Position numbers and translations under genes: made by a program. Under the pieces are notes generated by a model. That model had not been told where the DNA came from. It ran no database searches and was given only the letters and a program-made list of their open reading frames with translations. 25,327 bases of DNA from IMG/VR virus record IMGVR_UViG_2671180357_000004, positions 1 through 25,327 of that record; one strand, given 5' to 3'. The stretch is from a virus. Its lineage: Duplodnaviria > Heunggongvirae > Uroviricota > Caudoviricetes. Below are positions 18,475 to 25,327 of this stretch, piece by piece. Position 1 is the stretch's first letter. Each line of letters starts with the position of its first letter.

Positions 18475-20380
18475 AGCTGCGCCCCTCTTTAACTTCGACA
18501 GTGATAATTTCCCGGAACCACGATTTCATCTCTTTGTGGGAGATGATCATCACTGTGCCACGTTCACGCGCTTTGGCTTCCAGAATCCCCATGAGACGCT
18601 CCAGACCGGCTGTGTCGAGCGCGTCGTCAATTTCATCACCGATAAATAGCTCGATATTCTTACTGGCGCGACTGGCAACCAGATCCTGCAAAGCCAGAGA
18701 GCACGCAATACGTACCTTACGCTTCTCACCACCAGACAAAGTCTGGAAGGATTTGCTGGAGCCTGTTTTGATTACGCTGATATTGAATTTGTCGCGATAC
18801 TCACCTTTCTTCGTTGTCTCCATTGTCGACCATTCGGCAACGATATTGCCGTCCGACAGCGTGTTGAGATACTCCGCAGTCCTGATGTTCAGGAAAGGCG
18901 TAACGGAGGTCAGGATGTGTGAACGCACGCCTGCTGGGGAGTAAACCTGGCGGGCCTTCTCCAGCAACAGAGCCTGTTCCTGAATGCTCTTTAACTCATT
19001 TTTAAGTACTGCATGATTAGATTTATTGGCAGCCAGGTTGTCTTCATGGCGCTTAATAACGGCCAGAAATGGGTTTGTTTCCGCCATGATGCGATTCACT
19101 TCAGTACGCGCCCGCGCAACCATCGCTTCGACGGCCACAACTTCACGTTCGCGATGACGCAGCGCACTTAGCTCATTGGTCAGGCGTTCTATTGTGGAGA
19201 TGATTTCTGAGACGTCGGGTGTAGCTGCGACCAGTGCAGACTCGATACCGAGCGCTTTCTCAAGACGAGCCTTGTGTTGAGCCACTGCCGCTGCTGATGT
19301 CTGCGCAAGGCCGATCTCATTGCGCGCTTGTTCAATGAAGCTCTCCTTCACCGTGGATAAATCTTCTTCGCAGTAGGGCTTTCCGCACGTAATGCAGGGT
19401 GCCCCGATCTTTGTGCTGACCTCTTCAGCTTTGGTTTTAAACGAGCGAGCACGGTTTATCGACTCGTTCTGTGCCGCTTCTGAAGTACGGATGCTTGAGC
19501 GGATCTCAGTAATAGCACTGCGCACCTTCAGCAGTTTGGCGTCATGCTCTTCTTTGGAGGCCAGCTTGCTGCGTTCGCCAGCAATCGCGTTTTCCGTATC
19601 ACGGATCTGTTCCGGCAGCGAGCGAATTTCCATCTCGACTTCAGACAGTGTTACCTCCGCGCCAGCCAAATCGGCTCGGGCCTTGTCCAGACGCTCGCCG
19701 CGATCGCGCTCCCAGCTTTCAGAGGACGCTTTGGCCGCCTCAATCTCTGACTGTGCAGTCTCGATAAGCGTGAGACAGGCGTCCATTTTGGATTTGGTAA
19801 CGTCCATACGTGCGGCAGCTGCATTAGCACGCTCGCGGGCAATGGCATAGGCTCGCGTCAATCGGTCGACGCCAGCAGCTTCTTCAACGATGGTTTTGAG
19901 GCTCTTGTCGGACATACCGGGCAGATCTGGCATCGCTTCCTGACTGGCGTAGATGGACGCCATGAACACCTCTTTCGATGCCCCAATCAGACGTTCTACG
20001 AACGTCTGTGTCAGCGTGTCCTTGCCTTTGGTCATATCACCGTCTTCACCACGGACGATTAGTCGGTTCTTGAACTCTTTGTGTTTACGATGGCGAATGA
20101 TCGCGTATTTCTTACCTTCGTCTTCAACTGTAACCATCACACGGCAGTTCTTCTCATGGCCCGTCGACAGCACATCATCGCCTTTGACGCCATGTGCAGT
20201 CTCACCATACAGACACCACATTAAGCTATTCATCAGAGTGGATTTCCCGGCGCCATTGCTGGCAGCAGACGTATCGCCACTGTTCACACCCTGGATCAGC
20301 ACCAGTCCACGCTGGTCTAACTCGACTTCTGCGCTGGCGATTGCCATAAAATTTTCAACCTGGAGCTTTAAAAACTTCAT
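18464..20380 (-). CDS. sbcC: SbcC/Rad50-like ATPase (recombination nuclease subunit)
   Basis: 638 aa from ATG MKFLKLQVENF (SD GAGGTG). Walker A NGAGKST, zinc hook CITCGKP, signature LSGGEKRKV, Walker B LFIGDEIDDALD, H-loop IISHKE, long coiled-coil middle. Confidence 0.85.
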   Translation of the reverse strand: MKFLKLQVENFMAIASAEVELDQRGLVLIQGVNSGDTSAASNGAGKSTLMNSLMWCLYGETAHGVKGDDVLSTGHEKNCRVMVTVEDEGKKYAIIRHRKHKEFKNRLIVRGEDGDMTKGKDTLTQTFVERLIGASKEVFMASIYASQEAMPDLPGMSDKSLKTIVEEAAGVDRLTRAYAIARERANAAAARMDVTKSKMDACLTLIETAQSEIEAAKASSESWERDRGERLDKARADLAGAEVTLSEVEMEIRSLPEQIRDTENAIAGERSKLASKEEHDAKLLKVRSAITEIRSSIRTSEAAQNESINRARSFKTKAEEVSTKIGAPCITCGKPYCEEDLSTVKESFIEQARNEIGLAQTSAAAVAQHKARLEKALGIESALVAATPDVSEIISTIERLTNELSALRHREREVVAVEAMVARARTEVNRIMAETNPFLAVIKRHEDNLAANKSNHAVLKNELKSIQEQALLLEKARQVYSPAGVRSHILTSVTPFLNIRTAEYLNTLSDGNIVAEWSTMETTKKGEYRDKFNISVIKTGSSKSFQTLSGGEKRKVRIACSLALQDLVASRASKNIELFIGDEIDDALDTAGLERLMGILEAKARERGTVMIISHKEMKSWFREIITVEVKEGRSYVV

Positions 20381-22091: not shown

Positions 22092-22736
22092 TTAAAACGT
22101 CTCTGAAGGCTTCTGACGCGCTCTGCTGATGTCTATTACCCCAGCTTTTGGACGAGGGTCTACAAGATTCAACTCTTCAGCACTGTGATACTCCGTGTCG
22201 AACTCCCGATCGACATGGCGAATGTAGATGGCTGTCAGAAGGCTGTTATCATTCAGAAAGTGTCCGTAAGATTTGTGAATTACTTCGCTAACCTTCTCAA
22301 TCTTCTCTCCGCCCATGCAGAGATGGTTAAATCGGCTGTGTTTCCGCAGCATTTCATCCACCGGGCCTGAGTAGACCTTATCAACTCTCCCGAACCGGAT
22401 GATATTTCCGGTATCAGCTTCAACCAGACAAACGAGTTTGCCAGGTTCGACACGATCTCGCCAAGTGACACCAGAGCGCAGTGTGTTGAAGTAGGGAGCA
22501 TCCAATCCGATGATCGGTTTACGAAATGCTAGTAGTGGCACGTAACGTATGCAGCTGTTTAGGTGGAAATGCGCACCGGCGTCGTGGAGTTTAAGCCGGG
22601 TTTCGTTAATCGGGCATTTCGAAGCAATGCCGCAAAGGTCGCAGAGCAACTTCTGTTTGTTCAGACTAGTGTTTGATTCAATGGTGTAGGAGCCATCTTC
22701 AAGACGGCGAACCCAGCGCGTGCGTTTAAGATCCAT
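22092..22736 (-). CDS. Hypothetical protein (214 aa)
   Basis: ORF in track; ATG at 22734-22736; contains CDLCGIASKCP; no confident domain call. Confidence 0.5.
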   Translation of the reverse strand: MDLKRTRWVRRLEDGSYTIESNTSLNKQKLLCDLCGIASKCPINETRLKLHDAGAHFHLNSCIRYVPLLAFRKPIIGLDAPYFNTLRSGVTWRDRVEPGKLVCLVEADTGNIIRFGRVDKVYSGPVDEMLRKHSRFNHLCMGGEKIEKVSEVIHKSYGHFLNDNSLLTAIYIRHVDREFDTEYHSAEELNLVDPRPKAGVIDISRARQKPSETF

Positions 22737-22813
22737 AATTCTTGTTCAAATAATTTTGTCCGGGGCAACGATAACGGATAAGGCGCACCGGAGTTTGCAA
22801 ATGCCTGTTTACT

Positions 22814-22830
22814 TATTCACTTTATTCACA
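22814..22830 (+). promoter_or_regulatory. Two tandem DnaA-box-like 9-mers (TTATTCACT, TTATTCACA)
   Basis: Fit the relaxed TTWTNCACA consensus; immediately upstream of the GATC cluster and iteron array. Confidence 0.4.
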
Positions 22831-22835
22831 GGCCC

Positions 22836-22893
22836 GATCCAATATTTAGATCCCCAGAGAGATCCTACAGAAGATCAAAAGAGATCCCCGATC
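22836..22893. promoter_or_regulatory. GATC cluster (6 Dam sites in 58 bp) of origin module 1
   Basis: GATC at 22836, 22849, 22861, 22873, 22883, 22890, mostly within AGAGATCC-type 10-12 bp repeats. Confidence 0.6.
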
Positions 22894-22934
22894 GTCTCCA
22901 GCGCTTGCGGTTACTGGCTTGAGAAGGGGTTACT

Positions 22935-23036
22935 ATCCACTATAGGGAGCAAAATAACCACTGTAGAGAGCATAATAACCGCTATGAAGAGCAAAACAAC
23001 CTCTCTGGAGAGTAGTCGGTATCCACTGTAGTGAGT
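22935..23036 (+). repeat. Iteron array 1: five direct repeats at 21-bp spacing
   Basis: ATCCACTATAGGGAGC, AACCACTGTAGAGAGC, AACCGCTATGAAGAGC, AACCTCTCTGGAGAGT, ATCCACTGTAGTGAGT at 22935, 22956, 22977, 22998, 23021. Confidence 0.85.
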
Positions 23037-23196
23037 AGGAGACAATGTTTTAACTGGATAACTCCGAGCCTGTTTTTCTGCGGCAGATGGCTGATATTCT
23101 TGGAAATATTGTAAATTTTGCGTTGCGGCGTGTTTATTTCGATCACACATTATCCCCAGAAGGGGAGTGATGCCTGATTTTGTAATTATCTGATTT

Positions 23197-23269
23197 TTAT
23201 ACACAGGCCCGATCCAGTAATTCAGATCCCTGTTAGAACCAAAGAGAACCACAAAGACCCAAAGAGATC
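23197..23269. promoter_or_regulatory. Origin module 2: DnaA-box-like TTATACACA plus 3 GATC sites and AAAGAGAnCC repeats
   Basis: CACAGGCCCGATCCA... segment is a near-duplicate of 22828-22893; GATC at 23211, 23225, 23266. Confidence 0.45.
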
Positions 23270-23317
23270 CCCGGCCCCTGCAAACCGTTGTGCCACATGG
23301 CTTTAGAGGTTATCGAT

Positions 23318-23439
23318 ATCCACTATAGTGAGAAGAACAACCACTATGGAGAGTAAATCAACCACTATGGAGAGTAGAAAAACCGCTGTAGGCGGTAGGA
23401 TAACCACTGTGATGGGTGCTACTATCCACTGTAATCAGT
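23318..23439 (+). repeat. Iteron array 2: six direct repeats at 21-bp spacing, ending 40 bp upstream of repA
   Basis: Starts at 23318, 23339, 23360, 23381, 23402, 23424; consensus A(A/T)CCACT(A/G)T(A/G)G(A/T)GAG(T/C). Confidence 0.85.
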
Positions 23440-23478
23440 AAAGGCACCCAAGCCGTCGAATAAAAAGAGACATTTGGA

Positions 23479-24534
23479 ATGAGCGTAAACGACAATAAAA
23501 ACATTGCGATAAGCGAAGCATTTTCCGAAACAGACAAAAAGACCGGCGAAGTTGTTACGTTAGTTCCTAACACCAACAACACAGTTCAGCCTGTTGCTCT
23601 GATGCGTCTTGGTCTCTTCGTTCCGACGCTGAAATCGACATCCAGGGGTAGAAAGGGGCAAATGGTCTCTATGGACGCCTCCGCTGAACTCAAACAGCTG
23701 TCTCTGGCCAAAGCCGAAGGGTACGAGGATATAAGGATTGCTGGTCTTCGTCTTGATATGGATAACGATTTCAAAACATGGGTGGGCATCATCCACGCGT
23801 TCGCCAAGCACAAGGTTGTTGGTGACACCGTCACGTTGCCGTTCGTCGAGTTCGTCAGACTTTGTGGCATTCCAACAGCCAGATCGTCCGCGAAGTTACG
23901 TAAGCGCCTGGACAGCTCTCTAAGTCGTATCGCCACAAACACCATCTCATTCCGCAGCAAAGGCTCTGAAGAGTATTACGTTACGCACCTTGTGCAGACG
24001 GCAAAGTACAGTACCAAGAATGACACGGTCGAACTGAAGGCCGATCCTAAGATTTTCGAACTTTACCAGTTCGACAAAAAGGTGCTTTTGCAACTTCGGG
24101 CCATCAACGAACTCTCCAGAAAGGAATCCGCGCAGGCGCTCTACACCTTCATTGAAAGTTTGCCACCAGACCCGGCGCCAATCTCATTGGCTCGCTTACG
24201 CGCCAGACTTAACTTAACCAGCCGCACCATTACCCAGAATGCGACAGTCAGGAAGGCGATGGAGCAGCTGCGAGAGATCGGCTATCTCGATTACACTGAA
24301 GTGAAACGCGGCAGCTCGGTCTACTTCGTCATCCACTATAGACGGCCGAAGTTACGTTCGGCACTGCCGCCATCTATGGCCACGCCTGAAGATCCAGAAG
24401 ATATCTTGCCAGGTGATGATCCGGAGGACATTATCGATGTTGCTCCTGAAGAAAAAGACGGGGAAATGGTCATGTTGAGCAAGGAAGAACTGGCGATTCT
24501 CGAAGAGCTGCGCAAGGCAAAGGCTCGCAAATAG
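23479..24534 (+). CDS. repA: Iteron-binding replication initiator RepA (RepFIB / P1 RepA-like)
   Basis: 351 aa; [72 protein letters not shown] recalled as hallmarks of RepFIB/P1-type initiators; flanked on both sides by iterons. Confidence 0.9.
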
Positions 24535-24537
24535 CCC

Positions 24538-25136
24538 AACCACTGTAGAGAGTAAAAAGGCTCACTATCCACTGTAGTGAGCCTTTTTGTTTATCGGAAA
24601 TGCAATATCCACTGTAGTGAGTAAAAGAAACCGAAGAATAACCACTGTAGGCAGTGCGCACAAATCGCGAAGTAAATGTTAGTGGTTGCAAACATAGATA
24701 AAACAAGGGCTGAGAGGTTAGCGGTCACTGGGTATCTCTGTTAAGTCTACTCTCTACAGCGGTTATCGTCGCTCTCCTCATTGTTGACTATCCACTGTGA
24801 AGAGCAGAATTGGCTGACTTGACCTCTATCCACTGTAGTGAGTGGATATCCGTTTAAAACAGCGAAGATTTACTCTCCATAGTGGATATCCGCTGGAGGG
24901 GGCATTCCATCACTCTCTATAGTGGTTGTTTGTAGTCAGTGAACGCCTGTTTACTCACTACAGTGTATAGCGACCCCGATAATCACCAATTTACTCACTA
25001 CAGTGGATAGTTGATATCGTGGCAGAGGGTTTGCTCACTACAGTGGTTGGGGTGCATACCTGAAGGGTGTTCTACTCGCTACAGTGGTTATGAGCCGGAT
25101 TCACACGCGGTGAGCTGGCTACTCACCGCAGTGGAT
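24538..25136. repeat. Downstream iteron field: 14 copies (6 direct, 8 inverted relative to the upstream arrays)
   Basis: Direct at 24538, 24567, 24607, 24640, 24790, 24828; inverted at 24749, 24872, 24912, 24953, 24993, 25033, 25074, 25121; the inverted run 24872-25121 has 40-41 bp spacing. Confidence 0.85.
24559..24591 (+). terminator. Rho-independent terminator of repA with an iteron embedded in the stem-loop
   Basis: GGCTCACTA-tccactg-TAGTGAGCC followed by TTTTTGTTT; stem/loop contains iteron ATCCACTGTAGTGAGC. Confidence 0.6.
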
Positions 25137-25327
25137 AGTGTTATCAGTGGATTTTCTTCAGCAGACCCCAGAGTGTCCCGGCCTTCGTTGCGAGCTTACC
25201 TGTTTCCGGATCGTACATGTGCCATTCACGTCGCTGGTGGACAATATACCCATCTTCACGTTCCAGTCGTTCCAGTACGCCGGACTGCTTGAACCCTTTG
25301 GCACGCCAGGTGATGCTGCCAACTTAC

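Follow-up and report, generated by a model that had tools for sequence, protein, structure and literature searches.

The 25,327-nucleotide stretch of viral DNA analysed here (hereafter, the window) comprises positions 1 to 25,327 of the IMG/VR record IMGVR_UViG_2671180357_000004 and contains the replicon of an SSU5/pMT1-type (pHCM2-like) phage-plasmid, as shown by nucleotide identities and from flanking genes that match those of SSU5. Upstream of the initiator gene, repA, this replicon carries two origin cassettes in tandem, each consisting of a leader with DnaA box and GATC heptamers, a G+C-rich spacer of fixed length and an array of phased RepA-binding iterons. The repA-distal cassette has the full set of Dam methylation sites, whereas the repA-proximal one lacks the central sites, and the same asymmetry is found in relatives from many genera. 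We lean towards the interpretation, drawn from sequence comparison, that the distal cassette is the origin and the proximal cassette a methylation-poor paralogue that serves as repA operator and control element.

A first-pass annotation of the window had described both modules, and its inventory agrees with ours: the distal module has two tandem DnaA-like boxes, six GATCs within 58 bp and five iterons, and the proximal module has one DnaA-like box, three GATCs and six iterons, ending about 40 bp (39 bp by our count) before the repA ATG at 23479 (see Table 1 for coordinates). The first distal box has one mismatch to TTWTNCACA and the second, which is conserved at 0.9 or more across 46 distal copies, matches it perfectly; the boxes sit where P1 oriR has its annotated 18-bp DnaA site. 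No other GATC cluster in the 25.3-kb window is as dense as the distal heptamer ladder: the mean is 4.6 GATC per kb, and only 6 of about 25,000 60-bp frames contain six GATCs; by analogy with P1, this ladder would be the site of both strand opening and SeqA binding. In the proximal ladder, the units between the GATCs stay heptamer-like (GAACC, GAACC and GACCC); across the 46 proximal copies, conservation of the box motif TTATCCAC is about 0.9.

The two cassettes are colinear, with 155 of the 214 aligned positions identical (72%), a register offset of 383 bp and an alignment score of 72, compared with 2.1 ± 1.4 for shuffled sequences. With the iterons excluded, the leaders alone score 33, compared with 2.0 ± 1.3 after shuffling, which bears out the earlier description of the proximal leader as a near-duplicate of the distal one. 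In each cassette, five iterons lie at +50, +71, +92, +113 and +135 from the GATC of heptamer H5; the sixth proximal iteron has no distal counterpart. When a matrix built from the 11 upstream iterons was scanned over the 25-kb window, 26 sites scored at least 16.9, 11 of them upstream and 15 downstream of repA, all within 22933–25138; the best site outside this region scored 16.0 (at 20227).

For the comparison with CHARACTERISED relatives, we used the annotated P1 record and the F RepFIB upstream region. The P1 leader and the F region align base by base with both cassettes, as do the Klebsiella relatives, the shared leader pattern being TTATCCAC-TTATCCAC, xGATCC, AGATCC ..., AAAGAGATCCCC(GATCG) and a G+C-rich stretch ending in CTGG..T.AGA. 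In P1, a single oriR unit (an 18-bp DnaA site, five Dam sites and five iterons, incC), with PrepA inside the rep-proximal iterons, is followed by repA and then by nine incA iterons. The window shares with P1 the tandem DnaA boxes, GATC heptamers, CGATCG and G+C spacer of the leader, the five phased iterons about 50 nt past the last heptamer and the presence of an iteron field downstream of repA, but it differs in having two tandem cassettes instead of one, iterons of the ATAACCACTGTAGAGAGTA type in place of the 19-bp GATGTGTGCTGGAGGGAAA type of P1, and a downstream field with 14–19 copies in both orientations, compared with nine copies in P1. One of the P1 heptamers is a non-GATC unit (AGGTCC).

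The closest characterized Rep is that of RepFIB (F, P307, pO157 and REPI of pColV-K30): RepA of the window is 64% identical to the F RepFIB Rep and 49% identical to P1 RepA, and in Pfam it scores above the cut-off for Rep3_N and just below it for Rep3_C (20.7 versus 21.1 bits). The leader elements TTATCCACA...AGGCCCGATCCAGTAAATAGATCC...AAAGATCCCC are common to RepFIB and the window, and F RepFIB has five 21-bp-spaced, origin-associated upstream iterons (BCDD'-type), a period that the first-pass annotation had likewise given for RepFIB-type replicons, as well as downstream iterons for copy control and incompatibility; plasmids nearly identical to the window are typed IncFIB. F, however, has a single upstream cassette. 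The tandem duplication of the whole DnaA/GATC/iteron unit does go beyond the classical RepFIB layout, as that annotation had proposed, since F RepFIB and P1 oriR each have one unit, and the two cassettes do not correspond one-to-one to the known ori and inc elements of RepFIB, because the equivalent of inc is the iteron field downstream of repA. The replicon has the Rep3-class initiator, the origin grammar (present twice) and the second iteron field downstream of rep that mark the P1/RepFIB-type iteron family, but not the canonical single origin cassette directly upstream of rep; given two cassettes here and one in P1 and F, it is a variant architecture within this family rather than the canonical form.

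Plasmid records that span at least 80% of the two-cassette region number 333, and about 2,500 further records, mostly Klebsiella IncFIB, match one leader only. We scanned a leader profile over the 1.5 kb upstream of rep in 85 loci, namely SSU5, Yersinia pestis pMT1, p15ODDR, Cyrano, one Rahnella plasmid and 80 RepFIB-like loci from species-representative genomes, with Rep proteins 61–94% identical. Two leaders were found in 46 loci, which come from Escherichia, a Salmonella phage, Yersinia, Kluyvera, Buttiauxella, Rahnella, Erwinia, Pantoea, Cedecea and Xenorhabdus, and one leader in the other 39. In a neighbour-joining tree of Rep, computed with no bootstrap values, all but three of the two-leader loci fall into one large clade. 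Sister to this clade are the Pantoea LPP-1-like plasmids, whose single cassette, at about -258, lies where two-cassette loci have the proximal one. The three remaining loci, all from Xenorhabdus, branch outside both groups, beside single-cassette Photorhabdus loci, so that their duplication may be older or independent. Given the spread of two-leader loci on the Rep tree, the duplication is ancient and long predates the SSU5 group. The leaders by themselves are too short and saturated for a neighbour-joining tree to date the duplication, and the usable signal is limited to a trend for distal-distal identity to exceed both proximal-proximal and distal-proximal identity.

The distal leader itself comes in two types. 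In Cyrano and p15ODDR (loci L007 and L004), it is of the P1/Klebsiella type, CACTGGATAGATCC, TTATCCACTGGATAGATCC, whereas the window (22813–22850), SSU5 and pMT1 have the F type, CACAGGCCCGATCC, TTATTCACAGGCCCGATCC, which over 15 nt matches the proximal leader of the window itself without a difference. The existence of two types could stem from recombination with another replicon or from gene conversion between the cassettes.

The distal and proximal leaders differ in their complements of methylation sites. Five or six GATCs are present in the distal leaders of 45 of the 46 loci, whereas most proximal leaders have three or four (range 1–5); single leaders have five to seven, except for Photorhabdus L057 and L058 and Xenorhabdus L060 (four each) and the contig-truncated Rahnella L020 (three). 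Heptamers H1 to H5 are GATC in 41–46 of the 46 distal copies, and H1, H2 and H5 are GATC in at least 43 of the 46 proximal ones. At H4, GATC is found in 45 of 46 distal copies (a count that includes 12 copies set one column off by the aligner) and in about 36 of 39 single copies but in none of the 46 proximal copies, where it is substituted by GTTC (18), GACC (17), GAAC (3), GGTC (2), GGCC (2) or GTCC (1), six variants that all keep the outer G and C (GNNC). In the SSU5 and Rahnella groups, H3 of the proximal copies is non-GATC as well.

At least six branches of the Rep tree have no detectable proximal leader (Tolumonas L041; L069; L044/46/50/51; L012/L019; L025 and L030/L048; L060), and in other Xenorhabdus loci it is fragmentary, with the proximal heptamers of Xenorhabdus changed to GCTCC/GTTCC. 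The loci that have no proximal leader retain the full distal cassette together with an iteron cluster just upstream of rep, and this proximal iteron cluster is present in every locus examined. By contrast, the distal cassette has been lost in no locus, the apparent exception, L020, being cut by a contig end 344 bp upstream. Divergence is faster in proximal than in distal leaders in 11 of the 15 between-group comparisons. Different stages of decay of the proximal cassette can be seen in Franconibacter (L012), Tolumonas (L041), Pantoea latae (L044) and Xenorhabdus (L059). In others among these relatives than Xenorhabdus, all that is left are irregular iteron pairs, scattered over the 300–700 bp between the putative distal origin and rep.

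Table 1. Features of the replicon region and the adjoining gene (window coordinates; a dot denotes no strand).
Feature	Position	Strand	Details
Conserved 214-aa protein gene	22092-22736	-	divergent, adjoins distal cassette
Distal cassette, whole	22813-23037		DnaA boxes, GATC heptamers, G+C spacer, five iterons
Distal tandem DnaA boxes	22813..22830	+	TTATTCACT at 22813, TTATTCACA at 22822
Distal GATC heptamer ladder, H1-H6	22836..22893	.	six Dam sites, at 22836, 22849, 22861, 22873, 22883 and 22890; aligns with annotated P1 oriR Dam sites
Distal G+C-rich spacer, fixed length	22894..22932	.	distance to first iteron kept in 44/46 distal copies
Distal RepA iterons, five	22933..23037	+	starts 22933, 22954, 22975, 22996, 23019; matrix scores 21.9-26.4
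Inter-cassette spacer	23038..23194	.	poor conservation; length differs among clades
Proximal cassette, whole	23197-23440		leader with one DnaA box, degenerate ladder, G+C spacer, six iterons
Proximal single DnaA box	23197..23205	+	TTATACACA, perfect match
Proximal degenerate heptamer ladder	23211..23269	.	GATC at H1 23211, H2 23225, H5 23266; no H6
Proximal G+C-rich spacer	23270..23315	.	length equals that of distal spacer
Proximal RepA iterons, six	23316..23440	+	starts 23316, 23337, 23358, 23379, 23400, 23422
repA, Rep3-type (WH1+WH2) iteron-binding initiator, 351 aa	23479..24534	+	identity to RepFIB Rep and P1 RepA
Downstream iteron field, 15 iterons	24536..25138	.	7 direct, 8 inverted; matrix scan
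Probable intrinsic terminator of repA	24553..24595	+	16-bp stem then U-run; -21 to -23 kcal/mol; z = -4.8

We lean towards the distal cassette as the origin because it resembles all the single cassettes, which are necessarily functional, and is never discarded. Under this model, the origin cassette would have been tandemly duplicated long ago, and the two copies would then have divided the ancestral functions between them. RepA monomers on the five distal iterons, together with DnaA on the boxes, would open up the ladder of methylated heptamers; once the origin had fired, SeqA would sequester this ladder in its hemimethylated state, as it does in P1 oriR. The proximal cassette, which occupies the ancestral place of the single origin, would be retained mainly for its iterons, most likely as the operator of the repA promoter, by analogy with P1: overlapping or abutting this promoter, the iterons would allow RepA to repress its own gene and, as extra RepA sites, they could pair with the origin and with the downstream field, through handcuffing or titration. 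Having lost the central GATCs, the proximal cassette would be both a poor origin and a poor target for SeqA, so that firing and sequestration would be uncoupled from transcription of the initiator gene.

Dam dependence is documented for P1 (Abeles & Austin 1987) and for the RepFIB replicon REPI of pColV-K30 (Gammie & Crosa 1991), and by homology the replicon of the window would likewise depend on Dam methylation and DnaA, with sequestration by SeqA and autoregulation by RepA. A recent study of FIB replicons relates the upstream iterons to the origin and identifies the downstream ones as the main inhibitory block, which exerts incompatibility; the mechanism that it favours is handcuffing, with Rep autoregulated through iterons (PMC11983097), and the handcuffing model of mini-F ori2/incC is cited in the same work. 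A possible but doubtful elaboration is that the replicon has two platforms, a methylatable firing origin and a 'methylation-blind' DnaA/RepA platform, with the same DnaA and RepA geometry as the firing origin, that has been selected to do without the central GATC, or else that is a Dam-independent second origin. If that were the case, the initiator gene would escape both post-replicative SeqA sequestration and origin opening, a resolution of the adaptive conflict between firing and autoregulation, and the cassettes would show, in nature, a bacterial replication origin that has undergone sub-functionalisation.

Several observations weigh against the model with the distal cassette as origin and the proximal one as operator and control element. 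Where the proximal leader is retained, it keeps the DnaA box, H1, H2, H5 and the exact +50/+71/+92/+113/+135 geometry, with the first iteron at +50 from the H5 GATC in 41 of the 46 proximal copies (among the distal copies, it is at +50 in 33 and at +49 in 11, that is, 44 of 46), although an operator would need the iterons only. Between the window and Cyrano, no non-coding segment is better conserved than the proximal leader (87% identity); repA is at 85%, the distal leader at 73%, partly because that of Cyrano is of the P1/Klebsiella type, and the inter-cassette spacer at 62%, compared with 84–87% for the iterons and the proximal leader that flank this spacer. Partial loss of GATCs is no proof of inactivity, because P1 has a non-GATC heptamer, and the proximal position is that of the ancestral origin, given the single cassette at -258 in the Pantoea LPP-1-like loci. 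The counts that document the asymmetry are phylogenetically non-independent and so describe a consistent pattern rather than a probability. Finally, a consensus sigma-70 scan (5 hits versus 3.2 expected) found no strong promoter in the last proximal iterons, the sole hit in the proximal cassette being TTTAGA-16-TATAGT (23302–23329), at the first iteron.

Could both cassettes then be working origins, with the proximal one less dependent on Dam and less subject to sequestration by SeqA, so that it might act as a back-up or condition-specific origin, for example, in incompletely methylated hosts or states? Each cassette has a DnaA box, GATCs at H1, H2 and H5, a G+C spacer of fixed length and five helically phased iterons; conservation of the proximal leader is high in the SSU5-Cyrano group, and P1 tolerates one non-GATC heptamer. 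Moreover, iteron phasing is needed for origin function, and disturbed phasing inactivates plasmid origins (PMC5043065), so that the conserved phasing of the proximal iterons suggests an origin-like complex. We nevertheless consider two working origins unlikely: the proximal leader has been repeatedly lost without loss of the replicon and the distal one never, and H4 is non-GATC in all proximal copies but GATC in nearly all single functional cassettes. In P1, the heptamer GATCs are reportedly critical individually, single-base changes in them inactivating oriR. Quite improbable, in our judgement, is the notion that the proximal leader (23197–23315) is a functionless relic whose conservation reflects limited time and the rarity of indels, with only the iterons being of consequence. 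It would agree with the disappearance of the leader on at least six branches and its partial decay in Xenorhabdus, without apparent consequence, and with the usually faster divergence of proximal leaders, but not with the retention of the DnaA box, H1, H2, H5 and the exact 50-nt spacing in 41–44 of 46 copies. These copies come from genera between which the inter-cassette spacer has reached saturation in both substitutions and indels (the window and Rahnella, for instance, share 27% identity there, with 48 gap positions).

The reverse assignment makes the proximal cassette the origin, abutting rep as in P1 and F, and the distal one an accessory control, enhancer or incompatibility element. The location of the single cassette of the Pantoea LPP-1-like sister group, at about -258, and the strong conservation of the proximal cassette in the SSU5-Cyrano group speak for this assignment, which we hold to be very improbable all the same because it is the distal cassette that has the full GATC set and the tandem DnaA boxes typical of single functional origins and that is never lost, as opposed to the repeated loss of the proximal leader. 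The idea that the arrangement arose recently, or by faulty assembly, in this sequence alone has nothing in its favour beyond the repeat itself and next to no probability, because the copies are only 72% identical and the same asymmetric layout recurs in many genera: it is found in SSU5, Y. pestis pMT1, Cyrano and Rahnella and Pantoea plasmids, the 333 plasmid records cover most of the region, and the layout together with the asymmetric loss of GATCs extends to relatives with Rep identity as low as 68%. Thus, among the three options that the first-pass annotation had offered, an origin combined with a separate control locus is the best supported, two origins are unlikely, and recent duplication is rejected.

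Division of labour between the cassettes, if real, would make this clade a natural experiment on a long-standing problem of iteron plasmids, namely that a P1-type origin has to be saturated with initiator in order to fire, even though this binding turns off the gene for the initiator, and is itself sequestered once replicated. Clear predictions for mini-replicons follow from the asymmetry, and the design of incompatibility-based curing requires knowing which iteron blocks inhibit and which activate. This type of replicon, usually handled as 'just RepFIB', maintains pMT1, the virulence plasmid of Y. pestis, as well as SSU5-like phage-plasmids, including some with resistance genes, and many large plasmids of Pantoea, Erwinia and Rahnella.

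Multiple initiator-binding clusters per initiator gene, some of them regulatory, are known from other replicons, such as R6K (alpha, beta and gamma), RK2 (oriV with 5+3+1 iterons) and mini-F (ori2/incC). None of those in R6K, RK2 or mini-F is known to be a tandem copy of an entire DnaA-box/Dam-heptamer/iteron cassette in which methylation sites have been lost asymmetrically. A functional analogy only is provided by chromosome 2 of Vibrio cholerae (ori2-min and ori2-inc), where the replicative array of iterons, with its GATC sites and DnaA box, has next to it, on the same side of the initiator gene, a second, regulatory iteron set that modulates initiation by titration and handcuffing (PMC6090056). 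The V. cholerae initiator, RctB, is however unrelated, and the regulatory part, which uses additional 39-mer sites, is no paralogous copy of the entire origin. Within the literature on pMT1, pHCM2, SSU5 and pLF82 that we searched, which did not include Lindler 1998, Hu 1998 and Kidgell 2002, we found no description of the iteron layout or of its duplication; the parts and the family are well known (P1 oriR and RepFIB), and the conserved tandem duplication with its fixed asymmetry apparently is not described. A 2026 preprint on heteroresistance involving a phage-plasmid concerns a CopA/CopT (IncFII-like) replicon and is not relevant here.

The downstream field and the remnants of heptamers in the proximal cassette add to the first-pass inventory, which had listed neither these remnants nor the roughly 15 downstream iterons in both orientations. 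This field corresponds to incA of P1 and to the downstream iterons of RepFIB, which are involved in copy control and handcuffing. Among E. coli plasmids at least 99% identical to the window (L090-L093), its inverted sub-array (24950–25140 in the window) varies in 41-bp steps, with totals of 14, 15, 16, 17 or 19 downstream iterons, whereas the 5+6 upstream iterons and their spacing are invariant in the same plasmids; the downstream variation is a copy-number polymorphism of the presumed control locus. The hairpin of the probable repA terminator, which a consensus terminator scan did not pick up, begins 19 nt past the repA stop codon, and its stem contains an iteron (24565–24583), so that RepA binding and termination could interfere. 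There is also an iteron-like site, TCATCCACTATAGACGGCC, inside the repA coding sequence (24329–24347; matrix score of 14), at the conserved IHYRRP motif, which may be coincidental.

The inter-cassette spacer contains two DnaA-box-like sites, AGTTATCCA at 23056–23064 (minus strand) and TTATCCCCA at 23150–23158 (plus strand), that recur at the same places in SSU5, pMT1 and Cyrano and call to mind P1 oriR, which has a further set of DnaA boxes towards rep. The IHF site WATCAANNNNTTR has no match anywhere in the window, neither cassette stands out as an unwinding element in the duplex-stability profile, and an Rfam search of the cassettes and spacer identified no family, the only sub-threshold match, apparently due to chance, lying downstream of repA. 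A hidden gene in the cassettes or spacer was considered and rejected: the open reading frames at 22720–23031 (plus strand) and 22911–23252 (minus strand) are unannotated in the nearly identical RefSeq plasmids, and the sole annotation of the latter, which encodes 113 amino acids, is as hypothetical protein F6P93_24580 in GenBank CP044300.

The Klebsiella pneumoniae plasmid NZ_CP079763 (L006, 2441–3858) is an SSU5-like phage-plasmid with the same flanking genes and one cassette. Its P1-like leader is about 80% identical to the distal leader of the window, its Rep is only 47% identical, and its iterons, of the ATGCTGTCAGCGGTA type, are unrelated to those of the window, a combination that suggests exchange of a 'specificity half', iterons plus rep, behind a conserved DnaA/GATC 'host-factor half'. 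The annotated start of this Rep is probably too far upstream, inside the iterons.

The 2.5 kb around the cassettes and repA are 99.7% identical to non-mobilizable E. coli plasmids of about 113 kb typed IncFIB, and about 90% identical to plasmids of Salmonella, Enterobacter, Citrobacter and Yersinia (340 records). Identity over 2.5 kb of the rep region is 89.5% with Salmonella phage SSU5 and 81.6% with Escherichia phage Cyrano (pLF82); Y. pestis pMT1 is about 90% identical across the two cassettes, and Salmonella plasmids of 105–107 kb match the rep region at 90%. The neighbouring genes that match SSU5 are those for an SbcCD-like exonuclease, the 214-aa protein upstream and a Cra-like protein downstream. 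The 214-aa protein has no Pfam match, is annotated in phage Cyrano as an ASCH RNA-binding domain protein and is syntenic throughout the SSU5-like elements examined, even in that from Klebsiella, whose replicon differs. The PLSDB/MOB-suite typing of NZ_CP086388 (L089; 113 kb, 99.7% identical) is IncFIA, IncFIB, IncFIB, which may reflect a second replicon elsewhere on the element or a double call. Another relative, CP088502, is a mobilizable plasmid of 158 kb typed IncFIB and IncHI1B, which suggests a cointegrate.

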